A DNA stretch of 64,000 nt from an uncultured Thiomicrospira sp. (GTDB taxonomy: Bacteria > Pseudomonadota > Gammaproteobacteria > CAKMZV01): assembly GCA_965195345.1 (NCBI GenBank), contig OZ239628.1, positions 992,001-1,056,000 of the forward strand. Direction: 5' to 3'. This document shows, one piece after another, positions 2,478 through 36,770 of this stretch. A program made the position numbers and the translations under genes. The stretch's first letter is position 1; every line of letters starts with the position of its first letter. The notes under the pieces were generated by a model, which was not told the DNA's origin, did no database searches, and worked only from the letters and a program-made list of their open reading frames with translations.

Positions 2478-2501
2478 AATTTTAAAACAATGGAGGGAAG
2501 A

Positions 2502-2789: not shown

Positions 2790-2800
2790 GAGAATATATT

Positions 2801-3967: not shown

Positions 3968-5269
3968 ATGGCTGTACATTTTATAAAAAAATCTTTGAAA
4001 GTGCCAACATCTACGGATGTCGAAACTGAAGAAATTGTTAAAGCTATGCTAAAAAAAATTGAGCAAGAAGGGGATTCTGCTGCTCTTGAGTATAGTAAAA
4101 AACTGGATAATTGGGACGGAAATGTTCTTGTTAGTGAAGAAGAAATTGAGAAAATAAGCGCAACAGTCCCACAAACTGTAAAAGACGATATAGCTTTTGC
4201 ACACGAAAATGTTACTCGCTTTGCTGAAAAACAGCTTGAGAGTATGTTGGACTTTGACGTGCAATTGCAGGACGGGTTATATACTGGACAAACCATTAGA
4301 CCAGTACAGTCGGCTGGCTGCTACGTGCCTGGTGGGCGTTATGCACATATTGCATCTGCTATTATGACTATTGCTACCGCTAAAGTTGCTGGTGTTAAAA
4401 ACATTACTGCCTGTTCACCACCTAAACCCGGCCAAGGAGTTAATCCACACATTCTTTATGCAATGAATTATTGTGGTGCTAACAATATTCTTGCCATGGG
4501 CGGTGTTCAAGCTATAGCTGCTATGACTTATGGTCTTTTCGGTTTGAAACCCGCTGATATATTAGCAGGACCTGGAAATAGATTTGTTGCAGAGGCAAAG
4601 CGATTGTTATTTGGTAAAGTTGGAATTGATGTTTTTGCAGGACCAACAGAAATAGCTATCATTGCCGACGATACAGCGGATTCAGATATTGTTGCGATAG
4701 ATTTAGTTGGACAAGCAGAGCATGGATTAGATTCACCTGCTTGGTTGATTACTGATAGTAAAAAATTAGCGGATGAAGTTGTGCAAAAAGTGCCAGAGTA
4801 CATTGCAAAATTACCCGAAGACGCACGCTTAGCAGCTAACCATTCTTGGGAAAATTATGGCGAAGTTCAGCTGTGCGAAACCCGCGATGAAATGGTTACA
4901 GTTAGTGATGATTATGCAGCAGAACATTTGCAGGTGCATGCTCGTGATTTAGATTGGTGGTTGAAAAATTTAAATAACTACGGTTCACTATTTTTAGGTG
5001 AAGAAACAACTGTTGCATTTGGAGACAAATGCTCGGGTACTAATCACGTTTTACCAACGAAGGAAGTTGCTCGTTATACAGGCGGATTATCGGTTGCAAA
5101 ATTTGTTAAAGTGCTTACATGGCAACGTATGGATAAAGAAGCTTTACCTTCAATTGCTGCTTGTTGTGCACGGATTTCACGTCTTGAAGGGATGGAGGCA
5201 CACGCTCGTACAGCCGATGCTCGACTATCTAAATACTTTCCTGACAGAGTTTTTCAGTTACAAGTCTAA
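3968..5269 (+). CDS. hpsN: Sulfopropanediol (DHPS) 3-dehydrogenase, histidinol dehydrogenase family
   Basis: GCYVPGGRYAHIASA, GPGNRFVAEAKR, GQAEHG, GTNHVLPT, EGMEAHAR; lies among suyAB/hpsOP rather than his genes. Confidence 0.85.
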   Translation: MAVHFIKKSLKVPTSTDVETEEIVKAMLKKIEQEGDSAALEYSKKLDNWDGNVLVSEEEIEKISATVPQTVKDDIAFAHENVTRFAEKQLESMLDFDVQLQDGLYTGQTIRPVQSAGCYVPGGRYAHIASAIMTIATAKVAGVKNITACSPPKPGQGVNPHILYAMNYCGANNILAMGGVQAIAAMTYGLFGLKPADILAGPGNRFVAEAKRLLFGKVGIDVFAGPTEIAIIADDTADSDIVAIDLVGQAEHGLDSPAWLITDSKKLADEVVQKVPEYIAKLPEDARLAANHSWENYGEVQLCETRDEMVTVSDDYAAEHLQVHARDLDWWLKNLNNYGSLFLGEETTVAFGDKCSGTNHVLPTKEVARYTGGLSVAKFVKVLTWQRMDKEALPSIAACCARISRLEGMEAHARTADARLSKYFPDRVFQLQV

Positions 5270-22280: not shown

Positions 22281-23440
22281 ACAGCCTCCCTTTGCAGTTC
22301 TTGTGCGAGGATGGCGGATTTCAACTTCTTTAATTCGTTTGTTTTTTTTACTTCTACTAGCAAGGTTTTTTCAACGTGTATTTTTGCACTCACCACCATA
22401 TTAAGCAGTCTCTCAAGCATTTCTCCATCTGGGCACGGAATGGGTATTTCATTGAGCTTTTTTTGGTTAAGTTTTGGTTGTGCCATACCTGAGATATACT
22501 GCGATAGATTTGTAGCATTCAGATATAGCTCAACCCATTTTTGTAATTTGGAATTTTCAAATTTCAGCACATGAGCATGATTGTTTACCCAACATTTTCC
22601 GCTTACAGAAAAAGCTATCGGATACGCCCTCATAAGCAGGTTTGCACCATCTTCAGAAATAAGCAGTAAATCATCGTCAAAGATGTACTCCTCAACATAA
22701 TCTACAATTCCGCTAGCGCCATAATACGGCACGTTACCAACTACTCGTTTAGATTTTGTAATTGGAATTCGCTTTGCATCTAGATTTTCAGAGAGATGCG
22801 ATAGATTTTTGATTTCCCACCGATACAAATCATTATTTAGAATTTCACGCATTATGCCCGACGACAAATTAGTATAGTTTGAGATTTTATCGTCTGTAAT
22901 TTTTATCGTTTCATCAATCTCAGCAAACGCAGCATCCAGTTTGGCTACGATGCGTTGTTGTTCTGCGAGAGGGGGGAGTGGAACGACAATCTCTTTGTAC
23001 TGGGCAAGCTGAAGGTTTCGTATGCCTGTTGAGTGACGCTGCATAGGTTCTGTCTTTCCACTAAGATAAAGGAAGTGTAGAAAACGATGAAGAAACTGTG
23101 CATCAAGCTCACTTTCGTCAAATACCCTTAGTCGCGCTGTGAAGTTGCTTAGTGAGTATGGAATATCTGCCGATGCATTATGAATACAAACTCTCCCAAC
23201 TGGCGTTTTATCACCACCACCAGACTTTTCTAAGATGATGTCATGCTTTTTAACTTCTCTCTTTTCTAGTTGCTTTGCTTCAACATCAAGTTCAACAACC
23301 TCTGAGTAGTCAAGTTGTCCAGAAGAAGTAAAGTTAGTATTACGTAATACTAACGCTTTAACGAATGGTTCCTTCTTTCCTTTCCATAGTCCGCTTTGAA
23401 TGCCACATAACTCCGATAGCTTTTTTATCTTCCACATCAC
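22277..23440 (-). CDS. hsdS: Type I RM specificity subunit
   Basis: Two TRDs separated by PLPPLAEQQRIVAKLD; C-terminal LKSAIL; overlaps hsdM and hsdR. Confidence 0.92.
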   Translation of the reverse strand: MMWKIKKLSELCGIQSGLWKGKKEPFVKALVLRNTNFTSSGQLDYSEVVELDVEAKQLEKREVKKHDIILEKSGGGDKTPVGRVCIHNASADIPYSLSNFTARLRVFDESELDAQFLHRFLHFLYLSGKTEPMQRHSTGIRNLQLAQYKEIVVPLPPLAEQQRIVAKLDAAFAEIDETIKITDDKISNYTNLSSGIMREILNNDLYRWEIKNLSHLSENLDAKRIPITKSKRVVGNVPYYGASGIVDYVEEYIFDDDLLLISEDGANLLMRAYPIAFSVSGKCWVNNHAHVLKFENSKLQKWVELYLNATNLSQYISGMAQPKLNQKKLNEIPIPCPDGEMLERLLNMVVSAKIHVEKTLLVEVKKTNELKKLKSAILAQELQREAV

Positions 23441-24888
23441 AGCAACTCCTTGATTGCCTGCAATGCTTGTGCTGCTTGCACATCTAACTGTTCAATCTCT
23501 GCGATGATTTCTTGCGGTGTACGATTATCTACTTCTTCAACGGTGTTTGGATTGTTAACAGTTAAATCCCATGTATCTTTGTTTACCGTTGCTCCATCGA
23601 CCAACCAGCTGTTGTCACTCAGCTGTTGCGTTTTAGCCATCTCAACAAATTCAGCTAAATCCTTTTCATTGAGCGGGTTTGTCTTACCCATATTTCTGCC
23701 AACATTGAGTTGGTAGTACCAAATGTTCTCAGTGGGTTTGCCCTTTTCGAAAAACAAGACAACCGTTTTAACGCCTGTGCCAATAAATGCTCCACTGGGT
23801 AAGTCCAGCACAGCAAACAGATTGCATTCTTCGAGCAACTGCCTACGCAGTGCAACGCTGGCATTGTCTGTATTGCTGAGAAAGGTGTTTTTAATCACAA
23901 TGCCACAGCGTCCGTTTACTTTGAGCATCTTTATAAAATGCTGCAGGAACAGATACGCTGTTTCGCTGGTGGCTACTGGGAAGTTTTGCTGTACTTCTGC
24001 ACGCTCTTTTCCGCCGAACGGGGGATTAGCGAGCACAACATCCACTCTATCTTTTTGCTGTATGTCAGCAATGTTTTCGCCAAGCGTATTTGTGTGCACA
24101 ATGTTGGGCGCTTCAATGCCATGCAGTATCATGTTCATTATGCCAATCACGTAGGCTAATGACTTTTTCTCTTTGCCATACAAGGTATGTGATTGCAGCT
24201 GCTCATACTTGCGAGCACTAAGTTCCTTGCTGCGCATGTGAGAGTACGCTTCACATAAAAATCCTGCACTACCCACAGCACCGTCATAAACAGTTTCACC
24301 GATAACTGGATTAATAACTTTGACAATGCTTTTGATGAGTGGACGAGGCGTGTAATATTCGCCGCCATTCCTGCCAGCATTCCCCATGTTCTTGATTTTG
24401 TCTTCGTACAAGCTGCTAAGCTCATGCTTGTCGTCATTGCTGAGAAAGCTGAGTTCGTCTATTTTGTTGATTACTTCACGCAGGGCATAGCCACTTTGCA
24501 ACTTGTTGCTTATCTCGCTGAAGATTTCGCCGATTTTGTATTCCAGCGTATTGGCACTGTCTGCGGATATTTTGAATTGCTTGAGATAGGGAAACAATTT
24601 GAAGTTAACAAACTCGCGTAAATCATCGCCTGTGAGTGCTGCGTTGTGATCCAGCTTGCCATCGCTGGATTTGGGTGTTGCCCAAGTTTTCCAGCTAAAT
24701 TCATCACTCAGTATCGAGTTGTAAACTTCACCATTGAGCGATGCGGAGTTGGCTTTTTCAGTCTCGTAGTCATCCAAGTACTTTAGAAACAGTATCCAGC
24801 TTGTCTGCTCGATGTAGTCAAGCTCACTGCTGCAACCAGCGTCTTTCCATAAAGTATCATCAATATTCTTAAACGCTGCTTCGTACAT
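23437..24888 (-). CDS. hsdM: Type I RM N6-adenine methyltransferase
   Basis: GEYYTPR, YDGAVGSAGFL, NPPF motifs. Confidence 0.95.
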   Translation of the reverse strand: MYEAAFKNIDDTLWKDAGCSSELDYIEQTSWILFLKYLDDYETEKANSASLNGEVYNSILSDEFSWKTWATPKSSDGKLDHNAALTGDDLREFVNFKLFPYLKQFKISADSANTLEYKIGEIFSEISNKLQSGYALREVINKIDELSFLSNDDKHELSSLYEDKIKNMGNAGRNGGEYYTPRPLIKSIVKVINPVIGETVYDGAVGSAGFLCEAYSHMRSKELSARKYEQLQSHTLYGKEKKSLAYVIGIMNMILHGIEAPNIVHTNTLGENIADIQQKDRVDVVLANPPFGGKERAEVQQNFPVATSETAYLFLQHFIKMLKVNGRCGIVIKNTFLSNTDNASVALRRQLLEECNLFAVLDLPSGAFIGTGVKTVVLFFEKGKPTENIWYYQLNVGRNMGKTNPLNEKDLAEFVEMAKTQQLSDNSWLVDGATVNKDTWDLTVNNPNTVEEVDNRTPQEIIAEIEQLDVQAAQALQAIKELL

Positions 24889-24906
24889 TGAGTGCTTATC
24901 CTTAAA

Positions 24907-25053
24907 TTACTTTGGTTTTCTGCCTTCGGCAATTGAGCCTTTTAGCATCCCAGCAGTAAAGCCGAACTCTTTACAAAGTCGTTTCACTTCTTTCAATGCA
25001 TTAGCACGTTTGTTTTTCTGTGCTTTAACCATCTGCTGCTGAATTGCTTTCAT
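24907..25053 (-). CDS. Small basic 48-aa protein resembling part of an H-NS-family oligomerisation region (not in ORF track)
   Basis: Hand translation MKAIQQQMVKAQKNKRANALKEVKRLCKEFGFTAGMLKGSIAEGRKPK; stop 18 nt upstream of hsdM start. Confidence 0.55.
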   Translation of the reverse strand: MKAIQQQMVKAQKNKRANALKEVKRLCKEFGFTAGMLKGSIAEGRKPK

Positions 25054-25083
25054 TTCAGCTTTCAACTTGTCATGTGATTTTAT

Positions 25084-25110
25084 CAGACACTTACTTTGAA
25101 TAAGTGTCTG
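25084..25110. promoter_or_regulatory. Perfect 10-7-10 inverted repeat upstream of the small ORF-hsdMSR operon
   Basis: CAGACACTTA-CTTTGAA-TAAGTGTCTG. Confidence 0.5.
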
Positions 25111-25508
25111 TGACAGCGTATAGGTTTGTTATTAGGTTGAAAAGCACGTTTTCTACGTCTAATGTTATGTGTTGTAATTAGGCAAAAGTATTTCAGCGTC
25201 TCACTATGCCAGTCCGTTTACTTGTCAATCACATAGCCATACGGCTACAAACCGTACAGTTTTGACGGTTTTAACTATACAGTAACTTACTGGTTTTTTG
25301 ATTCGGTAACGGTGGTTGTGGACGGATAGGTGTAAAGTCAGTTCGTTCTGTGTCTTTTTTTAAGTGCCAAGTTTGCTCGCAGAGTTACTATGATTTCCAG
25401 TAGTCACACGTTTGTGCAACATTCTGTGTAACTGCATGAGAAAACCTCAATTAAAGCAACGATTGATTTTTTTATGTAAAAGTAATGTGCAAGTTAAATA
25501 TAGTTTAA

Positions 25509-25521
25509 AATCAATGACTTA
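25509..25521 (+). promoter_or_regulatory. IHF consensus site beside att core A
   Basis: AATCAA-TGAC-TTA matches WATCAANNNNTTR; a one-mismatch counterpart (AATCAACACTTTC) sits at 30480-30492 beside the guaA core. Confidence 0.55.
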
Positions 25522-25533
25522 AAATATAAAAGC

Positions 25534-25700
25534 TATTCCCACTCAATGAGTAATACTCTCTGAAACCCTTTATTTAAAGGGGTTTTAAAAAAGTTTGTAT
25601 TAACTTTGTATAAGAGAGGTTTCATTTTCTACCCATTGTTGTATGACTATACCTATAACCTAGGTGTTTCATACAAAGTTTGTATCAGAAAATTATACAT
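25534..25700. repeat. att-like site copy A (core + palindrome + arm-type repeats)
   Basis: TATTCCCACTC identical to guaA 3' end (30505-30515); CCCTTTA-TT-TAAAGGG; AAGTTTGTAT 25591, AACTTTGTAT 25602, palindrome ATACAAAGTTTGTAT 25671-25685. Confidence 0.85.
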
Positions 25701-25834
25701 GTTTTGTTCACTGACTCACTGTGTCAGAAGATAAAATACTGCCCTGGTCTAACTGGTTTTTCTTGGTTGATTCAATGAAGATTAAAGTGAAAAAGGAGAC
25801 TCAATCCTACCTTATCAATTGCGAACCGATTGTT

Positions 25835-26035
25835 TCAGCAACAAGCATCTCCCTCTTGAATAGGCGGACAAACAACATCTCCAAAAGAACAAAAAATACA
25901 GCAATCACCCTTATTAGGTTTTAAAAGTGCTTTACAATTTGCACATTCATAAAAAAATTGACAACTATTAGTCGGCATTGTTTCAGTTTTTTTATATCCA
26001 CAATTAGGGCAAGTTATAGTTGAGTTTAATTCCAT
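25835..26035 (-). CDS. GDCCVxC-type Cys-rich metal-binding protein
   Basis: STITCPNCG, E.MP..SCQFFYEC..C..LLKP..GDCCIFCSFG.V.CPP.Q. Confidence 0.85.
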   Translation of the reverse strand: MELNSTITCPNCGYKKTETMPTNSCQFFYECANCKALLKPNKGDCCIFCSFGDVVCPPIQEGDACC

Positions 26036-26038
26036 TTA

Positions 26039-26419
26039 TCAACACCTTTTAGATATGGGTTTTATCACATCAATTATTGCCACAAAAGACATCAACAAAA
26101 GTGCCACATAAAAAATCGTCCTACTAAATGCAAATTCCCAAAAGACATAGAGAACTAAAAAAATCACAAACGGACTTGTAGTATTTAAAAAACCACGCAG
26201 ATGGTTTTTATGATTAAACCACGAATATAAATTTGAAACCAAGACTACTAAAGTAAAAAAAGGTAGCAGGTAGTTAATTGCAATACTCTCAAAAACAGAC
26301 AGAAATCCCAACCCCATAACAGAAGCAAGTGAAATGAATGCAGGAAAACATGCGGGACAACTTAAAGCAGCAATCCAAATACCAACAGTTCCTATTTTAT
26401 CTGTATGAAATCTTTTCAT
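26039..26419 (-). CDS. merC: MerC-family mercury/metal transporter
   Basis: DKIG..G..IAALSCPACFPA...L.S..GLGFL; 4 TM segments; C-terminal P..KRC. Confidence 0.8.
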   Translation of the reverse strand: MKRFHTDKIGTVGIWIAALSCPACFPAFISLASVMGLGFLSVFESIAINYLLPFFTLVVLVSNLYSWFNHKNHLRGFLNTTSPFVIFLVLYVFWEFAFSRTIFYVALLLMSFVAIIDVIKPISKRC

Positions 26420-26427
26420 TATTGCAC

Positions 26428-26590
26428 TCCCACTTAATGAGTTACCCTCTGAAACCCTTTATCTAAAGGGGTTTTAAAAAAGTTTGTATTAACTTTGTAT
26501 GAAACCATGTCCTTGAAACAGTTGTTATTACTGCATTTGTGCGATTTTAGTGTGTTTTCATACAAAGTTTGCATGACAGAATTATAACAT
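26428..26590. repeat. att-like site copy B (direct repeat of copy A, 891 bp apart)
   Basis: 26428-26500 nearly identical to 25537-25611; second conserved block ATACAAAGTTTGCAT at 26560-26574. Confidence 0.85.
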
Positions 26591-26708
26591 ACAATTATTT
26601 CCAAAAACCCCCTTATCAAAATCCAAACTCAATGAGATACTGAAAGAGTAGTTTCAAAAATCATTACATTTGTAGTGTCTTAAAAACTTAATTTTTATAA
26701 ATACTTTT

Positions 26709-27293
26709 ATGAACTTTTTAAAAGAGAATTTTCAGTCTTCTAATGAACTTGTTAAACAAGTCATGATGCAAGATATACAACGAAGAAGTTATCAAAGATT
26801 TCTAAAGACATTCAAAACTGACAATATGTTATTCCTCGTATTGCACTTGAATAATTACCTGTCTAAAGAACAAAATCCATTTGAGATACAGAAGTCGTTG
26901 AAGAGATTTTTCAGAAGAGTTGATAACAAAGTGTTCAGTAGTAAATCAAACAAACGACTTCAAAGATATGTTGTTATTGAGAACTTAAAGAAACAGAAAC
27001 ATCAGAAAAGACTTCACTCTTCTAGAGTATCTAACAGAACTCATGTTCAGATTGCGATTGATGTTCCTAGACATCTCACAAAGAGTAAGTTGAGAGATAT
27101 CATTCGTAGTTCTTTAGATAATCAGATATGCAATCTATCTCATGTTGATGTTGTTGATAGATACGATGAACTGATTGATTACAACACGAAAGATATGTAT
27201 TCAATCAAACCAACAGATACAGATATAACATTTGATGAAGTGAACTCATACAGAGTAAAGAAGAGAGTTCATGAACATCGTGAAGTGCATTAA
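26709..27293 (+). CDS. Putative HUH-endonuclease / rolling-circle replication initiator
   Basis: Ordered motifs LFLVLHL (I-like), YVVIE...RTHVQIAI (II, HUQ variant), IDYNTKD (III, YxxK); pattern recognition only. Confidence 0.55.
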   Translation: MNFLKENFQSSNELVKQVMMQDIQRRSYQRFLKTFKTDNMLFLVLHLNNYLSKEQNPFEIQKSLKRFFRRVDNKVFSSKSNKRLQRYVVIENLKKQKHQKRLHSSRVSNRTHVQIAIDVPRHLTKSKLRDIIRSSLDNQICNLSHVDVVDRYDELIDYNTKDMYSIKPTDTDITFDEVNSYRVKKRVHEHREVH

Positions 27294-27340
27294 CTTGCCG
27301 AGAATCAGTCTTTACTGACTCTCAAAATGTTTATTTCGTT

Positions 27341-27577
27341 ATGAAGTGCATTGAGTTGCATTGTGATTTTTATTGTCTGAATAATGAGAAAAGAGATATG
27401 ACAATTGCAAAGAGTAATAGATGCAGAGAACTGTTAAAAGAACTAGAACAGATTCAATACGACTATCTAGAAACCAACATGATTAGACTGACAGAAACAG
27501 AGAAACGATTCTACAAACATCGTAAGAAGATTATTCTCAAATATGTGTCAGATTATCTAGATACACAAAACGCATAA
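27341..27577 (+). CDS. Hypothetical small helical protein (start may be ATG 27398)
   Basis: ORF in co-oriented cluster; no recognised motif. Confidence 0.55.
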   Translation: MKCIELHCDFYCLNNEKRDMTIAKSNRCRELLKELEQIQYDYLETNMIRLTETEKRFYKHRKKIILKYVSDYLDTQNA

Positions 27578-27600
27578 ATAGTAGTTAGAGATTAAATTAA

Positions 27601-27993
27601 ATGAAGACTTCATCAAAAATCATTCTAGAGAACATTAGAATTGATAAACAATTAAGAATAAATGTTGCACTCGTTAACGATAAACAATTAAACACATTAT
27701 TTAATGATATAAATCATCACATTGATGAATTAAATAATACCAAGATGAATGAACACGAGAAAATATTCACTCTTGAAACATTGATAAAAGATTTAATTGA
27801 ATTTAATAACAAAACTTTCTTCAAACTTTATACAACTACTAATGAAAAAGTGCGAGAAACAGAACGAGTAAAGAGATTAAAGTCATTTTTAGACATCAGA
27901 AAAGATGTTGAAGATGAATTACCTGTTCCTGATGATGATGAAGATGATGTTCCTTCAATTCCACCTGCATTAAAGAGAAAATTAAACCTATGA
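27601..27993 (+). CDS. Hypothetical helical protein with acidic linker and short conserved-looking C-terminal tail
   Basis: 130-aa ORF ending DDDEDDVPSIPPALKRKLNL; ATGA overlap with next ORF. Confidence 0.65.
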   Translation: MKTSSKIILENIRIDKQLRINVALVNDKQLNTLFNDINHHIDELNNTKMNEHEKIFTLETLIKDLIEFNNKTFFKLYTTTNEKVRETERVKRLKSFLDIRKDVEDELPVPDDDEDDVPSIPPALKRKLNL

Positions 27994-28193
27994 AACCAAA
28001 AAGATATTCACAAAATCCTATTCAAGTCAGAATACACAATGTTCAAGAAGACACTTTGAATAAAATAATGAACGATACTGAATATTGCACTAGAAAGAAT
28101 ATTATTTCTAAAAGTGATGCAGTTCGTTCTGCATTATTTTCATTATGTAAAGACTACGAACAAGAGAAATATAATCAGTTAATACAGTCATAA
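27990..28193 (+). CDS. Ribbon-helix-helix (CopG/Arc-like) DNA-binding protein
   Basis: Beta strand IQVRI, helix QEDTLNKIM, then SKSDAVRSAL typical of RHH helix B. Confidence 0.6.
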   Translation: MKPKRYSQNPIQVRIHNVQEDTLNKIMNDTEYCTRKNIISKSDAVRSALFSLCKDYEQEKYNQLIQS

Positions 28194-28275
28194 CTCATTA
28201 CATTAAAACCACTTAATATAGTCGTGTGCGTTCGGGGAAAAGTCAGTCTTAAACAGTTAATACATTGAGAGTCAA

Positions 28276-28404
28276 ATGAACGAAAAAGTCATTCAGAAAC
28301 AACTAGAGTCGTTTGAGAAACAGTTTGATAAGACTGTTCAAGAGTTCAAAAGTCTTCTAAAAGTATTCAAACAAGAATTAAAGAACTCACAAAAGAACAG
28401 ATAG
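28276..28404 (+). CDS. 42-aa amphipathic/coiled-coil peptide (not in ORF track)
   Basis: Hand translation MNEKVIQKQLESFEKQFDKTVQEFKSLLKVFKQELKNSQKNR. Confidence 0.4.
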   Translation: MNEKVIQKQLESFEKQFDKTVQEFKSLLKVFKQELKNSQKNR

Positions 28405-28496
28405 AGTTGTAAATCAAACTAAAGTCTAATTTACACTTTTTCTAGAAAGTGAAATGTTGATTTTAATAGTGTTTCAGAGTGTCTATTTGCAGAAAA

Positions 28497-29084
28497 TTAG
28501 ATAGACATTGATTTACATTGTTGTGCGACTCTCGTATGACTGATTCCTACTCTATCTGCAATCTTTCTATAAGATTTACCTTTCTTTCTTAACTCCATGA
28601 TTTGATATTCAATATCTTCATCAACAACATCTTTTCTTCCAAATTTAACACCATCTTTCAATGCTCTTTTGATTCCGATTATCTGTCTTTCTCTTCTCAT
28701 GTTGTTTTCTAACTCTGCAAAGATTCCAACCATATAGAAGAAACTACTTCCCATAGTTGTAGATGTATCAATTCCTTGTTTGTAAGAATAGATATCAATG
28801 TCTAAATCTTTGAGTTGTGATAGAACAGACACAAGATGTTTCATGTTTCTTCCTAATCTATCTATTGACCAAACGACTAACTTATCAAATTTTTTTCTAG
28901 ATGCATCTTTCAACATTCTCTTTAATTCATCTCGTTCATTAACACCTTTAGTTCCACTTATCGTTTCATCATATTCTTCTACTACAATCCAATCATTTCG
29001 TTCACAGATTTCGTAGAGTTCTAGTCTTTGATTTTCAGTAGTCTGATGACTTGTTGAACATCTCATTAAAATTGCAACTCTCAT
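28497..29084 (-). CDS. Serine recombinase, resolvase/invertase family, with C-terminal HTH
   Basis: RCST..Q (catalytic Ser), ISG, VVWSIDRLGRN, FAELE, GVKFGR, SYRKIADRVGIS HTH. Confidence 0.92.
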   Translation of the reverse strand: MRVAILMRCSTSHQTTENQRLELYEICERNDWIVVEEYDETISGTKGVNERDELKRMLKDASRKKFDKLVVWSIDRLGRNMKHLVSVLSQLKDLDIDIYSYKQGIDTSTTMGSSFFYMVGIFAELENNMRRERQIIGIKRALKDGVKFGRKDVVDEDIEYQIMELRKKGKSYRKIADRVGISHTRVAQQCKSMSI

Positions 29085-30352
29085 ATATCTTCTCCTTTCT
29101 CTTCAACTGTTCCTTCTCTTGTGATTGAAAACGATTTCAATGCCTGTGTTCTCATAGACTCTTCTTTGTATTTCAGATAAGTGTCTTCAATGTGTTTGAT
29201 ACTTGTTCCTGCAAGTTTTGAAATATCAATGATATTCACACCACTCATAACACGCATTGTTATTCCAAAGTGTCTTAACGAATACCAAGTCAGATTTCTT
29301 TCCTCTTTCCACTCTTTAAGACTGATACCAATTCCAGTCATTAAATTTCTCCAATGTTTTGCATACTTCTGTGCAGAAATTGTTGCAGTTCCATTTACAG
29401 ATGCAAAAACTAAATCATCTTTACCTGTGAACTTCTGTCGTTTCTTCAATCTTTCAAAATACTCACCACCTCTACAGATGATTTTTCTATTTGATTTAAC
29501 TTTTGATGTTTCTGCACGAACATTGATATGTGCAAGAAGATGTTGTTTCTCATTTTCATCAAAGACTCGTTCAATCTTTTGCACATCTTTCCATTTCAAC
29601 TGTCTTAATTCCCCTACTCTCATGCATGAGTTAGATGAGATGAGAACATAATCTCTGATTATCATTCGTTCTAATTGTTCTGATTCATCAGTATTGTTCT
29701 TATCTGCAACATAACTTCTCATGAAACGAATCAGATTGTCGTATTCTTCAAGAGTGAATGTATCTCTTTTTCCAACATCATCTTTTCTGATACTGATTTT
29801 CTTAAAATCAAATTCATCAAAATGAGATATGTTCAAACGATAAAGAAACTTCATCATGTGATTGATTGTTGATTGTTCATTTCTGATTGTGATGTCAGTT
29901 GCATCTTTGAGTTTTTTTCTCAATCGTTGATATTCAAAGATTGAACTTCTATCAAGTTCTGCAACTTTCGTATTCTTACCAACGATTTTCATGAAGTGTT
30001 TTAACTGTGTGCGAATCGTAGTCCAACGACCTTGAACGATTGTATTTCCGATGTCTTTCTCTCTGTCTTCTAGATACAAATCAATTGCAGTTTCAACAGT
30101 CATTCCAAAGACTTTCTTTCCTTGTTTTACATTCGTAGATAACTCCATTCCTAACTCTCTTCCACGAATGAGTGCAGTTTCTAAATCTTTTGTTCTTAAT
30201 GACTTACGATAGTGTTTCTGTTCTTCCTTGATATACATTCTGAACTGAAAAACATCACCACTCTGTTTGACTCTAAACACTTGTGCGAGTCCATCTAGAA
30301 TGTCGTGTTGACTATGAAGATTATTACCTTTTGATACTCTTTTTTTTCTCAT
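29081..30352 (-). CDS. Tyrosine integrase with N-terminal arm-binding region
   Basis: MRVGELRQLKW (R), SKVK (K), YSLRH, AGTS, DTYL (Y); YRKSLRTKD arm-domain motif; adjacent to guaA 3' end; ATG 30352 (track start 30376). Confidence 0.92.
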   Translation of the reverse strand: MRKKRVSKGNNLHSQHDILDGLAQVFRVKQSGDVFQFRMYIKEEQKHYRKSLRTKDLETALIRGRELGMELSTNVKQGKKVFGMTVETAIDLYLEDREKDIGNTIVQGRWTTIRTQLKHFMKIVGKNTKVAELDRSSIFEYQRLRKKLKDATDITIRNEQSTINHMMKFLYRLNISHFDEFDFKKISIRKDDVGKRDTFTLEEYDNLIRFMRSYVADKNNTDESEQLERMIIRDYVLISSNSCMRVGELRQLKWKDVQKIERVFDENEKQHLLAHINVRAETSKVKSNRKIICRGGEYFERLKKRQKFTGKDDLVFASVNGTATISAQKYAKHWRNLMTGIGISLKEWKEERNLTWYSLRHFGITMRVMSGVNIIDISKLAGTSIKHIEDTYLKYKEESMRTQALKSFSITREGTVEEKGEDI

Positions 30353-30380
30353 TTTTACAATGTTTCGTAATAACAACAGA

Positions 30381-30515
30381 AAGTTTGCACTTATCTTTGT
30401 ATCTACAGAATCATTATACTATGAAAATACAGTCAAAATCAAAAGTTTGTATGAAGTTTGTATGAAAGAAATCCCTTAAAATCAACACTTTCAGATGATT
30501 TTGTTATTCCCACTC
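30381..30515. repeat. Integrase-proximal att site: arm-type repeats and core in the guaA stop region
   Basis: AAGTTTGTATG twice in tandem at 30443-30464; AAGTTTGCAC at 30381; core TATTCCCACTC at 30505-30515. Confidence 0.8.
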
Positions 30516-32084
30516 TATTGTTGCTGGAGGCTTGCCTGAAATGTCGTAAACTACTCGTGCCACTTCGGGGACTTCATTGATAATCCTATTTGATACGTAT
30601 CCAAGTAAGTCATATGGTAAGTGCGCCCAAACAGCGGTCATAAAGTCAACAGTCGTAACTGCTCTCAAGGCAACAACGTAGCCAAAACGTCGAGCATCTC
30701 CAACAACACCTACGGATTTAATCGGCATGAAAACGGTAAATGCTTGTGATGTTTTTTCGTAATAATTTTTTTTATGTAATTCTTCAATAAAAATTGCGTC
30801 GCATCGTCTAAGAATGTCAGTATACTCTGCTGTTACTTCACCAATAATGCGCACGGCTAATCCCGGACCAGGGAAAGGATGGCGGTGCAATAAGTCTTTA
30901 TCTAGCCCTAAATGTGCGCCTATCTTGCGGATTTCATCTTTAAATAATTGGCGCAAAGGTTCGAGTAATTTCAAATTTAATTTATCGGGTAATCCGCCTA
31001 CGTTATGATGCGATTTGATGGTTTTTGCATTAGCGTTTGTATTGCCAGCAGATTCAATAACATCAGGATAAATAGTACCCTGAGCAAGGTAACTTATTTG
31101 TTTTTTTTCTTTTGCGTAGTCTTCAAAAACTTCGATGAAACTGCGTCCGATGATTTTACGTTTTTTTTCAGGATCTTCGACTCCTTTAAGCGCGCTGATG
31201 AATTTTTCTTCAGCATTGATGAAGTCCACTTTGATTCCTAGGAGATTGGCAAATAGTGCTTTAACTTGTTCTTCTTCGAACAAGCGGAGCAAACCATTGT
31301 TCACAAAGACACATTGCAGTCGATCACCGATGGCTTTGTGTAAAAGTAGCGCTGCAACTGAAGAATCTACGCCTCCAGATAACGCTAAGAGTACGTGTTC
31401 ATCAGCTTTAATTGTTTGTTGTAGATTGTTGATGATGTCCGCAGTAATATCGCTCGTTTTCCAATGGTTATCACAGCGGCAGATTTGCAGGGCAAAGCGT
31501 TCAAGAATGTTTTGCCCTTGAATAGTATGTGTAACCTCAGGATGAAACTGGATGGCGTACAGGTTTTTCTCTATATTGGCCATTCCTGCAAGAGGGCAGG
31601 AATCGGTCGAAGCCATGCAAACAAATCCAGGTGGCAATTTGGTTACTTGATCTCCGTGGCTCATCCAAACATCTAATAAGCCATGCCCGTGCTCATTGTG
31701 TCTATCTTCTATGTCTTTCAATAATGGAGTGTGTCCGCGCGCTCGAACTTCAGCGTGTCCGTATTCATGTTTAGCTGAGGATTTTACAGCGCCCCCAAGT
31801 GTTTGAGCCATTAACTGCATGCCGTAACAAATACCAAGTATAGGAATATTCAGTAGGAATAATCCTTGAGGAGCAGATAGTGATTGATCTCCATAAACCG
31901 ATTCGGGTCCTCCAGATAAAATAATCCCAGCAGGGTTGAAATCTTTTATTGAATCAATGGTGCAGTTGTGCGAATACACTTCGCAATAAACACCAATTTC
32001 CCTTATTCGACGGGCGATTAGTTGTGTAAATTGCGATCCAAAATCAAGGATGAGTAAGTGATGAGCATTTTCATTTTTTTCCAC
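30504..32084 (-). CDS. guaA: GMP synthase (glutamine-hydrolysing)
   Basis: [41 protein letters not shown]. Confidence 0.98.
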
Positions 32085-32086
32085 AG

Positions 32087-33550
32087 TTAAACTCGATAAT
32101 TTGGTGCTTGCTTGGTTATGGTTACATCGTGCACATGGCTTTCATTGAAAGCTGCAGAGCTTATTTCGACTATTGTTGCGTTATTCTGGAAACTTCTAAT
32201 ATCAGCTGTCCCGCAATAACCCATGCTCGAGCGTAGACCACCGCATAATTGCGCAATGATGGGGGAAACAGGTCCTTTATAAGGCACTCTGCCTTCCACG
32301 CCCTCAGGAACTAATTTATCGAGTTCTGTTTCTGTTTGAAAATACCGATCACTTGAGTTATTTGGTCCACGCATGGAAGCAAGCGAACCCATGCCACGAT
32401 AAGACTTATATGCACGCCCTTGGAAATATTCAACTTCTCCTGGAGATTCATCTGTTCCAGCAAATATGCTACCTAACATGATGCAGTCGGCTCCCACGGC
32501 TACGGCTTTAGCAATATCACCTGAGTAGCGTACGCCACCATCAGCGATAACTTTAACCGACGTCTTTTTTAATGCTTCTACAGCGCTTTGGATGGCAGTA
32601 ATTTGTGGCACACCGACTCCTGAAATAATACGTGTTGTGCATATTGATCCAGGTCCTATCCCAACTTTAACGGCATCTACCCCAGCTTTATAGAGTGCAA
32701 CAGCAGCTTCAGCAGTAGCGACATTGCCACCGATAACTTGCATGTCAGGGTAATGTTGTTTAATCCATTTAATTTGATCGAGCACACCTTGTGAGTGACC
32801 GTGCGCAGTGTCGACCACGAGCACATCAGCTTGCGCTTCAACAAGCGCTGTAATACGTGCTTGATTATCATTGCCAACACCTACGGCAGCACCTACCAAT
32901 AAACGTTCGTCGGAGTCTTTGCTGGCGTTTGGATGGCTTGATGCCTTTTTAAAGTCACGAGCAGTAATCATGCCGCGTAATTCAAAGTCTTGATTGATCA
33001 CAAGAATGCGTTCAAGTCGATGTTTATGCATTAGTTCGATAACTTTTCTATTGTCGATATTGCGCTCATCAACGGTTATAAGTCGCTCTTTGGGAGTCAT
33101 TACACTGGTAATGGAAGCGTTGGTGTCGCGAACAAAGCGCATATCTCTACCCGTTACAATGCCTGCTAAATCTCTACCCTTAACAACAGGCATTGCTGAA
33201 ATGCCTTTTTCTTGACTGAGCGTAAGTGCATCAGCTATGCAAGCATCTATGTTGATGGTTACAGGATCTCGAATTACTCCGCTTTCAAATTTTTTGACGC
33301 GCAAAACTTCGTTAGCTTGATCTTCAATGCTTAAGTTTTTGTGGATGATGCCTATTCCTCCTTCTTGTGCAAGTGCAGTAGCTAATCCACTTTCAGTAAC
33401 AGTGTCCATAGCAGCAGAGAGCAGGGGGATATTGAGTCGTATTTTTTCTGTTAAATAAGATTTAAGATCAACATTTTTAGGGACAATGTTGGAATAAGCT
33501 GGAACAATGAGAATATCATCAAAGGTAAGAGATTTTTTAATGGATTTCAT
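32087..33550 (-). CDS. guaB: IMP dehydrogenase
   Basis: [16 protein letters not shown] pair, [23 protein letters not shown]. Confidence 0.98.
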
Positions 33551-33934
33551 GATTGAATAGAAAGCATAAGGAGCAAGGAATACACAATGCTGTATTTTAT
33601 CGCAATTAGCTGTTTTTTTTATTCAAAAAAACTTTTAAGTTTTAGCTTTTCACAGCATATTTTTTCTATAGCAAAGAATGAAAATTCTATGTAATGATTG
33701 ATTTTTTCTTTTGCCAATTTAAATAAATCCAATGAGAAAAAACTGATTTTATGATATCCATTTATCGCAGGATGGTCTTTCAGCAAAAATGGAGAGCACG
33801 GTGATGAGATGTTACGTTCAGCACAAGGAAACCCTGTCCGCTGCGTGTTCTGGTCTTGAAAAAGGGAGAAAGAATGATTTTATATAGTACAGTATACACA
33901 AAATATTAAATGGTTACTTTTGAGGAGGAATGAT

Positions 33935-35083
33935 ATGTTGCACTTTTCTGAAAACGAATTTGAACAAAGGTTAGCAAAATTACGAGAAAAAATGGTCGAA
34001 GAAAATTTAGATGCCATGTTGCTATTCGCGCAAGAGTCAATGTATTGGTTAACGGGCTATGATACTTTTGGATTTTGTTTTTTTCAAACAGTTTTGGTTA
34101 CGCACAATGAGCCTGTAGCGCTACTGACACGATCCGCTGATTTGCGACAAGCACAGTTAACATCAAATATTAAAAACATTGATATTTGGGTGGATGGACA
34201 GGATGTAGATCCAACCAAAAATGTAAGTGATATGCTTAAAAAAAACAATCTGGTGAATAAACGGGTTGGTGTTGAAACAAATACGCATGGTTTGACTTTT
34301 TATAATGGACAATTATTACATGCTCGCATTGGTTCAATGATTCAATGGGTTGAGGCGTCTTTTATTATTTCTAATTTGCGACTCATTAAATCGGACGCAG
34401 AGATTGAGTACGTTAAGAAAGCAGCATCTATTGGTGATGGAGCCTACGCTAAAGCATTATTAGCTATTGAAGAAGGAAAAGATGAGTCGAATGTAATAGC
34501 GGCATTACAAGGAGAAATATTTGCTCAAGGGGGTGACTTTCCTGCCAATGAAATAATCGCTGGCGTAGGCGCAAACGCAATTTTATGTCGTTATCAATCG
34601 GGGCGGAGTATTATTCAAAAAAATGATCAGTTTACCCTTGAGTGGGCTGGAGTGTATAAACATTACCACGCGGCTTTGATGCGAACGGTCGTAGTGGGGA
34701 AGCCAACAGAAAAACACTTGTACTTGCAAAAACATGGTGCAGAGGCGTTGCTTGCGTGTGAAGAAGTGTTAAAGCCTGATCGACCGATGGGTGATGTGTT
34801 TGCCAAACATGCCCAAGTGTTAGATGCAGCTGGATTATCAAAATGTCGGCTGAAAGCGTGCGGTTATTCTTTAGGTGCTCGTTTCTCTCCTTCTTGGATG
34901 GAACATCAAATGTTCTACGAAAATGCTGAAACGATTATGCAAAAGAATATGGTTTTTTTCCTGCACATGATTCTTGCTGATAGTGAAAGTGGAGCAGCTA
35001 ATTGCATAGGGAGGACTTCAATAATTACCGATGCGGGCTCTCAAACATTGTCAGAACTATCGCTTGAATTGACTGTCGTATAA
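33935..35083 (+). CDS. M24-fold hydrolase (creatinase/ectoine hydrolase-like)
   Basis: Creatinase N-domain (F...E...RL, YWLTGY), LRLIKS.AEI, YHAALMRT, CGYSLG; GAGGAGG RBS before ATG 33935. Confidence 0.8.
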   Translation: MLHFSENEFEQRLAKLREKMVEENLDAMLLFAQESMYWLTGYDTFGFCFFQTVLVTHNEPVALLTRSADLRQAQLTSNIKNIDIWVDGQDVDPTKNVSDMLKKNNLVNKRVGVETNTHGLTFYNGQLLHARIGSMIQWVEASFIISNLRLIKSDAEIEYVKKAASIGDGAYAKALLAIEEGKDESNVIAALQGEIFAQGGDFPANEIIAGVGANAILCRYQSGRSIIQKNDQFTLEWAGVYKHYHAALMRTVVVGKPTEKHLYLQKHGAEALLACEEVLKPDRPMGDVFAKHAQVLDAAGLSKCRLKACGYSLGARFSPSWMEHQMFYENAETIMQKNMVFFLHMILADSESGAANCIGRTSIITDAGSQTLSELSLELTVV

Positions 35084-35214
35084 CTTCAATTGCAGTGCTG
35101 GCCGGTTGTTGATTGTTTTGCCACGATAGGTGATGTACCTTGATGTGCACAATAATAGGACCAGTGTACGGTGTGCTATAATCGTTTTTTAATCATATTC
35201 AATATAAAAAAGGC

Positions 35215-35532
35215 ATGGAAAAATACATATTTATATATCATGGTAGTGGTTCTGCTCCAGAAAACGAAGAAGAAGGCAAAAAAGTCATGCAAGCTTGGAT
35301 GGAGTGGTTTGAGGTAATGGGTGAGGCAGTAGTCGATATGGGGGCACCTATTGGTATGTCTTCAACAGTTCACAGCGGTGGGAAGGTAAGTTCAGATGGA
35401 GGAAGTAACCCTGCTTCTGGCTATACTATAATTCAAGCAAATACTCTCAATGAGGCACTTGAGCATGCAAAAGGTTGTCCGCTTCTTGAGGATGAGGGGA
35501 GCATAGAAGTTGCTCAAATTCATTCAATGTAA
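35215..35532 (+). CDS. YciI/YCII-related protein
   Basis: MQAWMEWF, G.P, SGYTIIQA...EA...AKGCP, IEV pattern. Confidence 0.75.
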   Translation: MEKYIFIYHGSGSAPENEEEGKKVMQAWMEWFEVMGEAVVDMGAPIGMSSTVHSGGKVSSDGGSNPASGYTIIQANTLNEALEHAKGCPLLEDEGSIEVAQIHSM

Positions 35533-35585
35533 GTTGACGGAAATTTCTAAGGAAAATAAAAAATAGCTTTTAGATTAGTACACGT

Positions 35586-35613
35586 AAGCATGCTTATAAA
35601 AAGGCATGCTTTT
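35586..35613. terminator. Probable terminator between convergent genes
   Basis: AAGCATGCTT-ATAAA-AAGGCATGCTTTTT imperfect hairpin. Confidence 0.45.
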
Positions 35614-36770
35614 TATAAGAAGTATGATATCTGTAGTTCTAAGTAGCTACTGCGATTTAGACGACTGGCGAGTAGTTCTTCTGAATCCAAATTAAATATG
35701 AATGCTGATATGTTTGCTTTCCAGTCATTGCCAAAGCGTTTTGATCCTGTAAGCGTAAAAGTTTGACTGAGGTGGTTGTTGTCAATGCTTACGCCAAGAA
35801 TAAACTCAGTACCATCAACATCATTTAAGGCAAAACGAGTTGCTAAGAAAGTATCGTTTTGTAATAACTCAAAACTTGATTCTCCTCTTTCATCCCAATT
35901 TACTTCAGCAAGCAATCCAAGATCTGTGTCCGCATAAATACCTACTAAAGTATATTCAAATCCAAATACACTTGCAAAGAAATCAATGTCATCTTTGAAT
36001 GACTTGTGAATTGCTTCAAGTTTCCAAAGCCATCCATCGTTTGAAAATTGATACTCAAGACCAAACTGTTTTATTTGACGGTAAAAGGGACGTAACTCAT
36101 TGTCTGAAAAGATGTAAATTGGAATGCGATCAGTTCCTTGAAAATACGATAGAGCAAATTCATGCTCTTCAATGAAATTCGAATAGCGAAAGGCAAAATC
36201 AACATGATTCTCTTCATCTGGATCTTGAAAGACTGGTGCCGCGTCTGTAATAAAAGCAGGATTCTCTTCTCCAACCCTTGTTTGAACGCGAAAGAAAGGC
36301 AGGATATATAAATCAAATACACCTGCTTCTTCTTGGTCGAATGTGGCACGGACAAGAGGCTGTCCCAATCGATAGGCTTTGTCAAACCCGTAAGCAACAT
36401 CTTGTTGATTAATAACATTTACAATGTTTCGAGATTCAACGACACCCCAGAAAACCTTGCTTATCCCTGCTGCTACTTCCCATGTTTCGGCTTGATATAA
36501 CCAGTTGAATTCACGAATGTCAAAGTGTGTCCTTTGTTCATCAACGCTGTCATGTAGATAGAAAAGCTGTATGTTTAGTTGATTGTCCTGATCAGAACTA
36601 ACCCATGTTAGTTGTGGTTGGAATATTGCCGCGATGAATAATTGTTCACTGTTCTCAGGAGGAGCATCAGTATAGTTAATGAGGTTAAGGGCAAATTCGG
36701 ATTGTACCTGTGTATCGGCGTATGTCAATGTACATGCAAATAACCAGCAAATAAACCAACAAACACGCAT
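35613..36770 (-). CDS. Outer-membrane beta-barrel protein associated with MMPL/LolA-like genes
   Basis: Signal peptide; DIRE, KVFWGVVES...VINQ.D motif; aromatic C-terminal strand (LELQISYFL). Confidence 0.7.
   Translation of the reverse strand: MRVCWFICWLFACTLTYADTQVQSEFALNLINYTDAPPENSEQLFIAAIFQPQLTWVSSDQDNQLNIQLFYLHDSVDEQRTHFDIREFNWLYQAETWEVAAGISKVFWGVVESRNIVNVINQQDVAYGFDKAYRLGQPLVRATFDQEEAGVFDLYILPFFRVQTRVGEENPAFITDAAPVFQDPDEENHVDFAFRYSNFIEEHEFALSYFQGTDRIPIYIFSDNELRPFYRQIKQFGLEYQFSNDGWLWKLEAIHKSFKDDIDFFASVFGFEYTLVGIYADTDLGLLAEVNWDERGESSFELLQNDTFLATRFALNDVDGTEFILGVSIDNNHLSQTFTLTGSKRFGNDWKANISAFIFNLDSEELLASRLNRSSYLELQISYFL

Follow-up and report, generated by a model that had tools for sequence, protein, structure and literature searches.

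Genomic islands integrated at the 3'-end of guaA, for example GIsul2, carry a tyrosine integrase, which targets the last codons of this gene and duplicates the core sequence. Rolling-circle replicons with HUH endonucleases have a defined single-stranded intermediate; to our knowledge, no replicon with rolling-circle replication and no phage with a single-stranded DNA (ssDNA) genome excludes one dinucleotide from one strand. In retroviruses, one-sided loss of GG is produced by APOBEC3G, a CC-specific deaminase acting on the complementary single strand, and takes the form of a lethal or sublethal burst of G-to-A substitutions with the appearance of stop codons. In this work, a 64,000-nt stretch of the genome of an uncultured Thiomicrospira sp. 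(assembly GCA_965195345.1, contig OZ239628.1, positions 992,001–1,056,000; hereinafter, the window) was analyzed. The window contains an integrative element of ~4.1 kb, located between copies of the guaA 3'-end core and belonging to a large family of small elements, found mostly in marine metagenomes and targeting guaA. The integrase-encoding strand in this family is kept free or nearly free of CC, and accordingly the complementary strand is free of GG.

For the elements known as VEIMEs, the main text passages of PMC9618062 describe six subgroups (48 elements) with a tyrosine integrase and a serine recombinase, in which many genes have no homologues. Strand-biased circularizing integrative elements (hereinafter, SEs), according to the passages of PMC10214605 considered here, contain the core intA-tfp-intB-srap, have a median size of 15.7 kb and occur only in Gammaproteobacteria. 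SE intermediates are nicked circles of double-stranded DNA, and the abstract of the same paper mentions no compositional signature.

Absence of GG from One Strand of the Element

The interval 26472–30525 of the window comprises 4054 nt with 31% G+C (A 1376, C 694, G 564, T 1420). On the + strand, it contains three overlapping GG, all within one GGGG at 28234–28237, compared to 78.5 expected from base composition, while CC is represented by 79 copies (118.8 expected). The nearest GG outside the interval are located at 26468–26471 and 30526. An earlier reading of the letters alone (hereinafter, the sequence-only reading) had placed the sole GGGG and both flanking GG correctly; the depletion reported in it is real, but its figures of ~15% G and about 90 expected GG were too high, the content of G being 13.9%. 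In the whole genome of 1,920,693 nt, no other stretch lacking one of the 16 dinucleotides is as long as either of the two GG-free runs (2290 and 1764 nt); third among GG-free runs is one of 680 nt, and for the other dinucleotides the maximum is 546 nt.

Codon-preserving shuffles, which the sequence-only reading had proposed as a check, gave far higher numbers. Shuffling of codon order within the seven open reading frames (ORFs; n = 2000) resulted in a mean of 28.5 GG (standard deviation 4.2, minimum 16), and synonymous resampling with the codon usage of the host (n = 2000) in a mean of 58.0 (standard deviation 7.0, minimum 36), so that the three observed, all of them intergenic, lie far below every shuffle. 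At codon junctions of the types NNG/GNN and NNC/CNN, where ~25 cases are expected, none was seen. The five ORFs of the + strand encode no Gly and no Trp and both ORFs of the − strand no Pro; the composition of all seven agrees with what had been read from the letters. Since intergenic DNA, codon junctions and genes of either orientation all obey the rule, it acts on DNA and not on proteins or codons. The most over-represented dinucleotide on the + strand is GA (observed/expected 1.56), and TC is also enriched (1.36); on reading of the sequence rather than from a count, both are attributed to AGA, GAA and AAG codons in genes of both orientations.

At least half of the sampled words of the stretch are present in 16 public runs from 14 studies. 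Two of the runs containing the stretch are RNA libraries, which is not evidence of transcription. Comparison of contigs from four runs with the element revealed eight variant positions inside it, none of which makes a GG. The agreement of independent metagenome runs and contigs shows that the sequence is real and is not an assembly artefact, an outcome for which the sequence-only reading had allowed. An artefact, chance, or a cause at the level of protein or translation, such as avoidance of amino acids or tRNAs, is so improbable that it may be set aside: beyond the missing Pro, Gly and Trp themselves nothing speaks for it, whereas independent runs agree, shuffles never come near the observed value, the amino acids banned depend on the coding strand, and junctions and intergenic DNA obey the rule as well.

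Distribution of the Rule among Related Elements

Homologues of the integrase number in the hundreds and originate mostly from marine metagenomes. A total of 84 related loci (designated L with a number) were analyzed, four from the named metagenome-assembled genomes of Porticoccaceae, SAR86, Rhodobacteraceae and Rhodospirillaceae and 80 from metagenomes; all were oriented with the integrase on the + strand. Pro is absent from 42 of the 120 best integrase homologues. A sample of 116 further homologues, taken around a distant member, includes 42 without Pro and 29 with one or two Pro residues; in neither set is any homologue Gly/Trp-poor. Proline-free integrases thus account for 84 of the 236 cluster representatives sampled, and the polarity is never reversed.

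CC-poor segments of 4–7.5 kb on the integrase-sense strand were found in the loci L005, L026, L055, L057/58, L065, L071 and L079, in particular in L065 (6206 nt, CC 2 vs. GG 193), L005 (5838 nt, CC 11 vs. GG 344), L055 (4151 nt, CC 3 vs. GG 185) and L079 (7485 nt, CC 33 vs. GG 565). The best score of a CC-poor segment on this strand is 208, while GG-poor segments never exceed 22 (85 loci scored; 87 loci in the collection). Ten pooled elements (41,673 nt) contain 43 CC and 1574 GG; the trinucleotides CCA, CCC, CCG, CCT, ACC, GCC and TCC are all reduced ~20- to 80-fold, and other di- and trinucleotides are within 1.8-fold of their complement. Nine further elements showed the same state of proteins, with ~0 Pro in sense genes and ~0 Gly and Trp in antisense genes.

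A natural inversion of one gene separates the effect of strand from that of protein. In L026, the 225-aa ORF at 1154–1831(−), antisense to the integrase gene, contains 3 Gly, 1 Trp and 5 Pro, with 4 GG vs. 20 CC on the coding strand. Its homologues in L037, 106–783(+), and L040, 3238–3903(+), are located in the sense orientation and contain 7–8 Gly, 5–6 Trp and 2 Pro, with 5–9 CC vs. 30–39 GG, although the proteins are 71–74% identical to that of L026. Accordingly, the strand determines which amino acids are banned, and the polarity is a property of the integrase/att backbone. Within this pair, Trp is replaced by Tyr, Phe or Thr, and Gly by Ser, Ala or His, while in the other version Pro is replaced by Ala, Asn or Ser.

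Counts, shuffles and the inverted gene support the strand-specific pressure at the level of DNA, blind to gene orientation, that was proposed from the sequence alone. The bias also tracks a clade, a point that the sequence-only reading had proposed to test, and the CC-poor state recurs across loci of integrase homologues with one polarity. The strand is fixed, but its reference is the integrase and att core and not the rep gene, with respect to which a fixed strand had been sought.

Contigs of relatives provide evidence for the joined form. In the contig L020, the far end of the integrated SAR86 element L004 runs into the integrase end with 20 nt shared at the join, and in the contig L052 the end of L055 is joined to its start; family members therefore exist as circles or tandem copies. 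In both pairs, L004/L020 and L055/L052, the CC-free zone stops at the joined att ends. The contig L020, which lacks the 2-kb insert of L004, contains no CC in 3537 nt. The insert itself (L004:7986–9991) carries 16 CC and small hydrophobic-looking ORFs inside an otherwise CC-free element.

Several observations concern individual loci. Exact terminal direct overlaps of 123 and 99 nt were found in L037 (6984 nt) and L085 (8936 nt), which have integrases with low CC counts and are probably circular contigs. ORFs of ~520–570 aa, corresponding to the size of guaA, are located directly upstream of the integrase on the same strand in L047 (18–1592), L064 (5288–6880), L067 (5148–6800), L024 (5261–6838) and others, which suggests the 3'-end of guaA as the usual target of the family. 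The 6.2-kb element L065 has all genes on the integrase strand, among them a second tyrosine recombinase of 200 aa and a gene for a 1002-aa Pro-free primase/helicase (1861–4869(+)), in which a BT4734-like domain at the N-terminus is combined with a helicase domain. In L078, a relative with normal CC content, a 601-aa protein with ParB_N and DruA-like regions is encoded directly downstream of the integrase (3159–4964(+)), possibly representing defence cargo.

Evolution of the CC-Free State

An unrooted integrase tree was constructed by a quick IQ-TREE search with 84 rows, L082 being excluded, and the rows were scored by the number of CC in the integrase gene. The CC-free class (4 or fewer) comprises 32 rows, the low class (5–26) 33 and the normal class 19. 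The three classes are interleaved on the tree; the CC-free state needs eight changes, at least seven of which are forced by well-supported branches. The integrase of L045 has no Pro, yet its gene contains 20 CC, and L016–19 carry a CC-free recombinase gene inside an otherwise normal element. Together with L004, these are signs of relaxation and mosaicism. The CC-bearing insert of L004 and the other mosaic cases indicate that a single CC site is tolerated and that the pressure is dose-like.

At former CC sites, recognized by the presence of CC in partly depleted relatives, CC-free relatives carry CA, CT, GC, CG or TC with no preference for C-to-T, although the divergence of 16–30% may blur the picture. 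Residual CC in CC-free relatives are sporadic, do not form runs and occupy non-homologous positions, and none is present inside the element of L065; no shared motif or context was found for them. The rule persists while the integrase has diverged to ~50% identity with intact catalytic residues. No signs of deaminase-type hypermutation in the form of an excess of C-to-T products were found, and ORFs are intact and conserved, which rules out a single hypermutation burst and also argues against pure mutational erosion. The CC-free state is thus the result of a long-term pressure on one DNA strand and not of a single editing event.

The same data bear on the possibility that the pressure is purely mutational, with the single-stranded form of one strand repeatedly edited by a CC-specific cytidine deaminase and no selection involved. 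A loss specific to both strand and dinucleotide resembles the footprints of APOBEC3G on retroviral plus strands, and the leading position of GA among over-represented dinucleotides and the gradient of depletion among relatives agree with such editing. This explanation is nevertheless improbable: CA, GC and CG at former CC sites are about as frequent as CT or TC, the enrichment of TC along with GA is read as codon use, premature stops are absent, and the proteins are conserved. Moreover, erosion of every Pro, Gly and Trp codon should quickly clear cargo as well, while the L004 insert and the merC module adjoining the element in the window are normal.

Organization of the Element

Coordinates of the element and of the tandem array to which it belongs are given in Table 1.

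Table 1. Features of the element and the adjoining tandem array (window coordinates)
Feature	Position	Strand	Remarks
GG-free interval of the + strand (CC-free on −), apart from one GGGG	26472–30525	+	Counts, shuffles
att core copy 1: last codons and stop of guaA (..IEWE*)	30504–30521	−	guaA/element junction
Tyrosine integrase, 431 aa	29081–30376	−	0 Pro
Serine recombinase (resolvase/invertase), 195 aa	28497–29084	−	0 Pro; overlaps end of integrase gene
42-aa ORF	28276–28404	+	No Gly/Trp
Intergenic GGGG	28234–28237	+	Only GG inside the interval; kept as CCCC only in L008 and L010 (closest relatives)
67-aa ORF	27990–28193	+	No Gly/Trp; most widely shared small ORF of the family
130-aa ORF	27601–27993	+	No Gly/Trp
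78-aa ORF	27341–27577	+	No Gly/Trp
194-aa candidate HUH (G2P/ORF2-like) rolling-circle Rep or nickase	26709–27293	+	No Gly/Trp
Left-end repeats of AAAGTTTGTAT type	26478–26586		Recur at 30441–30481
Terminal GC hairpin (att palindrome of the sequence-only reading)	26452–26475		Contains GGGG 26468–26471; adjoins core copy 2
Degenerate att core copy 2 at the far junction of the element	26425–26441	−	Placed by 889-nt repeat spacing
merC module, integrase-less, 874 nt	25551–26424	−	merC 26039–26419; 66-aa Cys-rich ORF 25835–26035
att core copy 3; outer junction of the tandem array	25533–25550	−

The integrase was assigned to phrog_1 'integrase' (E 7.7e-32); its score against PF00589 (Phage_integrase), 26.0 bits, is slightly below the cut-off of 27.1, and many homologues carry precomputed PF00589. 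An alignment of 20 sequences shows no variation at the catalytic residues R253, K292, R368, H369, R375, H395 and Y400. The serine recombinase, the gene of which adjoins the integrase gene in most family loci, contains the PF00239 (Resolvase) domain at residues 4–146 (E 2.2e-38, 132.1 bits, cut-off 23.3), shows weak helix-turn-helix matches at residues 155–191 and matches phrog_125 DNA invertase (E 2.5e-49). For the five small ORFs of the + strand, no family was found in Pfam, PHROG or PADLOC.

The guaA-end core is present at both junctions of the element in the window, and the joined form is known from relatives; the sequence of core 1 is also present in attL and attR of L004 and in the joined form L020. 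The array is arranged in the order guaA with core 1, element (~26442–30503), core 2, merC module, core 3. The mobile unit between core copies occupies ~26442–30521, i.e., ~4.1 kb. The terminal hairpin lies inside this unit, so that its + strand contains two GGGG in all. The sequence-only reading had identified the GG flanks correctly, but the hairpin GGGG, which it took as the edge of the element, belongs to the mobile unit. The left-end repeats form an inverted repeat of 14–17 bp (26491–26507/26553–26569; z −2.5) and are probably integrase arm sites or an origin. The region around the intergenic GGGG is not structured.

The merC module carries a terminal hairpin and arm-type repeats of its own (a 58-nt repeat at 25554–25611 and 26443–26500) and looks like a mini-element mobilized in trans. 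The GG content of the merC module and of guaA is normal; the statement of the sequence-only reading that the bias ends at the element boundaries was thus confirmed by the counts. The rule is limited to the self-mobile backbone, and cargo and host flanks are exempt.

Contigs represent all four mapped runs, and depth in them does not correspond to copy number. In the X4 contigs, a depth of 13 for the element compared to 130–198 for the merC module and flanks is only a hint that presence of the element varies. In metagenome contigs, the depth of the merC module is several-fold above that of the element, and one loose end in X12 puts the merC module straight after a guaA-like end. A contig break at 26471 does not mark the end of the element, as it results from the word length and the 58-nt repeat, which ends at 26500. 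The joined form of the element of the window was not seen in contigs of the four runs.

No tRNA genes were found in the region 20000–36000, and Rfam gave no match at E 0.1 for 25000–31000. The integrase was not found in 60 relatives searched; among the four nearest genomes, guaA reaches an identity of only ~65%, and none of them yielded a flank suitable for comparison. Just past the tandem array (19965–24888), genes of type I restriction-modification are located, encoding an HsdR-like protein (19965–22280) and HsdM (23437–24888), which may be part of a larger guaA island. Further away, a 2848-aa ORF of cadherin-like repeats (8805–17351(−)) explains the uniform composition of the region 9000–17000.

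Candidate Replication Protein

The 194-aa ORF has 10 relatives among 1.84 billion representatives. In their alignment, the motifs LFxVLHLN, RTH[VI]Q (NHVH in one member, P0129) and LIDYNTKD were read by eye; on this reading they fit motif I, the HUH/HUQ motif and the YxxK pattern of HUH endonucleases. H-x-H and YxxK were also noticed by eye in analogous antisense ORFs of L013, L058, L071 and L079. In the AlphaFold model of the 194-aa protein (predicted local distance difference test, pLDDT, 64), the motifs are located on a β-strand and an α-helix, as predicted for the HUH fold.

Fold comparison of the model revealed SIRV1 ORF119 (Z 7.8), pMV158 RepB (Z 6.7) and AAV5 Rep (Z 6.0), all under the caution line of 8, and Foldseek revealed RAYT, RepB and IS608 TnpA with E ~1e-2 (8e-3 or worse); such values lie in the range where a common ferredoxin-like arrangement would also fit the model. 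In the language-model atlas, the 194-aa ORF and the 218-aa ORF of L058 adjoin a cluster in which 14% of members carry PF23343. The analogous ORF of L013 scores 17.1 bits against PF23343 (Replication-associated protein ORF2/G2P; cut-off 27.8). Comparison of the candidate with PDB sequences by profile search yielded no meaningful match. The 194-aa ORF probably encodes an HUH rolling-circle Rep. The putative rolling-circle Rep of the sequence-only reading is thus plausible by its HUH and YxxK motifs, while the fold and language-model matches are weak but concordant.

Another reading of the rule starts from the two GGGG and the Rep candidate. A G run on the Rep-sense strand, which is a C run on the integrase-sense strand, could be an exclusive cis-signal read on ssDNA by the element's own or helper machinery, as a nick or termination site, a nucleation site of an ssDNA-binding or packaging protein, or a priming site, and stray copies of it would be avoided. 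The element keeps exactly two + strand GGGG, both non-coding, one intergenic and conserved in L008 and L010, the other in the terminal hairpin beside the att core; in addition, there is a resemblance between the Rep candidate and the G2P/ORF2 family, known from filamentous phages, and in Ff phages the ssDNA-binding protein of gene 5 has a preference for G-rich sequences. Such a signal has only a slight chance of being the cause, as residual sites in relatives are sporadic, do not form runs and are non-homologous or absent (L020, L065), replication modules vary among relatives that keep the rule, and a signal of four bases needs no ban on every GG.

Possible Nature of the Pressure

The explanation preferred here, plausible though rather less than probable, is that one strand of the element must survive alone against an activity recognizing only CC (GG on the complement). 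According to this proposal, one defined strand would function alone at some stage of the life cycle, as a circular single strand, as the strand transferred by a nickase of the HUH Rep type, or as the one unbroken template of the rolling circle. The activity met there would require just a pair of neighbouring bases, either CC in the integrase-sense strand or GG in the complementary one; candidate agents may be a cytidine deaminase specific for CC in ssDNA and followed by uracil excision, or an ssDNA nuclease or modifier specific for the dinucleotide. Since the complementary copy would be missing, any such site would be potentially lethal, and selection would have purged all of them, recoding proteins if needed. 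Initiators of the G2P type nick the strand of their own sense, as in Ff phages; by this analogy, the displaced strand of the element in the window would be the GG-free + strand.

A number of observations weigh against this explanation. The polarity follows the integrase and not the Rep-like gene, and in L005 the ORF bearing HxH and YxxK is located on the integrase strand. In relatives of the L065 type, the rule is maintained while a primase/helicase takes the place of a Rep-like ORF, so that a single strand made by an HUH protein is not the only route. The assignment of the 194-aa ORF as Rep is itself weak (no match in Pfam or PHROG, pLDDT 64, Z below 8). No single-stranded form was observed, the contig joins showing circular or tandem topology and not strandedness. 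An insert with 16 CC is tolerated in L004, and the merC module remains unpurged with the same att machinery, which indicates that a single site is not lethal; of the 84 rows of the tree, 33 low and 19 normal ones are relatives partly depleted or normal. We know of no CC- or GG-specific ssDNA enzyme in these hosts, and no candidate agent was found in the host, where PADLOC gave two marginal matches (E 2.6e-4 and 4.8e-3), which were not credited.

Genes of several defence systems are present in the host genome. A type II CRISPR-Cas system at C1:1568978-1575981 includes a Cas9 ORF with an open frame of 1136 aa (HNH_4, RuvC_III, Cas9_a) and an array of 41 repeats of 37 nt with spacers of 29–30 nt; the 40 spacers have no match beyond 16 nt to the element, the family loci or the genome. 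One C5-methyltransferase and a type I restriction-modification system beside the island were also found. Searches of the host for DUF4007, which we take to be SspB, and for DndE gave no match, but the controls were silent too, so that this result says nothing. The DNA of the element has no blastn match in phage and plasmid collections, and tblastn with the integrase was likewise negative in them at E 1e-20; a scan of a viral contig collection confirmed one weak integrase relative out of 77 pattern matches.

Another possibility is that the rule protects duplex DNA. If an enzyme damages only the strand bearing its site, CC confined to one strand spares the element double-strand breaks, and one intact template, suiting the rolling circle, is always left. 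As the agent, a frequent nickase directed at CC, a type I-F CRISPR system, or an enzyme needing two inversely oriented sites, like the type III restriction enzymes, may be considered. The chlorella-virus nickase Nt.CviPII has the site CCD, in type I-F CRISPR the CC protospacer adjacent motif (PAM) marks the strand degraded by Cas2/3, and phage T7 escapes EcoP15I because all of its sites face the same way, a precedent for strand-biased escape from an enzyme acting on duplex DNA. All contexts of CC are avoided equally and nothing else is, as fits a two-base determinant; the opposite strand keeps 79 CC, the rule covers exactly the circularizing unit, and a ban on GG in one strand also removes all palindromic sites with a GG/CC step. 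Protection of this kind is nevertheless unlikely. Either strand would serve equally well, yet all scored loci have one polarity across at least seven tree changes, which needs an ancestral trait; no such nickase or type I-F system was found, the CRISPR of the host being of type II (Cas9). Known type III sites are of 5–6 bp and not 2, and dropping a few palindromes is far cheaper than a dinucleotide ban. Still, this protection of the duplex is the main alternative to exposure of one strand.

Other causes were considered and rejected. UV dimers do not explain the rule, as TT, TC and CT are abundant on the clean strand, nor do transcription-coupled or replication-fork processes, as gene orientation is ignored and neighbouring host genes are normal. 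Avoidance of the Cas9 PAM was set aside, since the other strand keeps 79 potential sites. The presence of a C5-methyltransferase instead of CC avoidance shows no clean correlation, with tandem genes occurring in the normal L064 and also in L073. These pairs of C5 cytosine methyltransferase genes are located a few kb downstream of the integrase (L064:10218–11794; L073:14163–15262), and in L073 only the integrase gene is CC-free. As an agent targeting G, DarT1 was considered, an ssDNA guanine ADP-ribosyltransferase for which the passages of PMC11543638 considered here report that no consensus motif was found.

A wider claim is of nearly balanced likelihood, slightly on the doubtful side: a widespread strand-directed activity, as yet undescribed and recognizing two bases only (CC, or GG on the complement), would act in at least two classes of marine bacteria against mobile DNA. 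The agent might be an equivalent, in bacteria or phages, of a deaminase specific for CC in ssDNA, or else a nuclease or nickase of ssDNA with dinucleotide specificity. If this is true, the family was driven to working integrases, recombinases, Reps and a 1002-aa primase/helicase built from 19 or 18 amino acids, and the CC-free strand is a genomic fossil of the two-base activity and a marker for finding it.

Significance of the Signature

Near-total exclusion of a dinucleotide from one strand, long kept and accompanied by the loss of whole amino acids, does not figure among the known genomic signatures; it points either to a DNA-targeting activity that is both strong and simple or to an undescribed cis-acting code. 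Searches of the literature, with most subscription journals and supplements outside their scope, found no report of strand-specific absence of CC or GG, as in the sequence-only reading, to which no element class with this signature was known. Since the family is abundant and easily detected, the signature offers a way to look for its cause, e.g., through correlation of CC states with host or helper genes.

Natural Pro-free and Gly/Trp-free enzymes, together with matched pairs under opposite bans, are useful for protein evolution and design. The GG- or CC-free strand is without NGG (Cas9) and CC (type I-F) PAMs, and without palindromic restriction sites containing a GG/CC step, which bears on escape from defence systems.

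Comparison with Known Systems

By its gene plan, the element corresponds to the VEIME type: it is small, contains an integrase, a serine recombinase and replication genes, and has no capsid genes. Both groups are small marine integrative elements, and some VEIMEs in the passages of PMC9618062 encode a primase/helicase, as L065 does. However, VEIMEs are defined there by encapsidation of concatemers, whereas for the integrase of the element described here a viral contig collection gave only one weak match and phage records none, and the main text passages of PMC9618062 mention no strand or dinucleotide bias.

The likeness to SEs, as far as described in the passages of PMC10214605, consists in integration and origin from marine Gammaproteobacteria, and recombination of attL with attR in SEs is biased to one strand. 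In contrast to SEs, the element has one tyrosine integrase and a serine recombinase; the intA-tfp-intB and srap core was not recognized in it, homology to tfp and srap not having been searched directly.

With the HUH rolling-circle replicons, such as pMV158 and the filamentous ssDNA phages with G2P, the element shares HUH/HUQ and YxxK motifs on a predicted strand and helix and the small circle. It differs in integration by a tyrosine recombinase, all matches of its candidate Rep are weak, and no origin was identified; the element is at most a putative member of the VEIMEs or of the rolling-circle replicons. Compared to the genomic islands at the guaA 3'-end, the elements of the family are much smaller, obey the strand rule and have an integrase without plasmid or phage match at E 1e-20.

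The closest parallels to the rule itself come from enzymes acting on DNA. In the avoidance of restriction sites and in the escape of T7 from EcoP15I, the distribution of sites is likewise strand-asymmetric as a means of escape from a DNA-targeting enzyme, but one specific site of 5–6 bp is concerned there, while here a bare dinucleotide is avoided in all contexts and whole amino acids are lost. Footprints of APOBEC3G share with the element the loss of GG confined to one strand; unlike them, the state of the element is clean, has been inherited over ~50% protein divergence with intact ORFs and shows no visible C-to-T bias. APOBEC3G footprints, the orientation of EcoP15I sites in T7 and restriction-site avoidance are thus only partial analogues, none of them representing an inherited, functional genome with exclusion of a dinucleotide from one strand.

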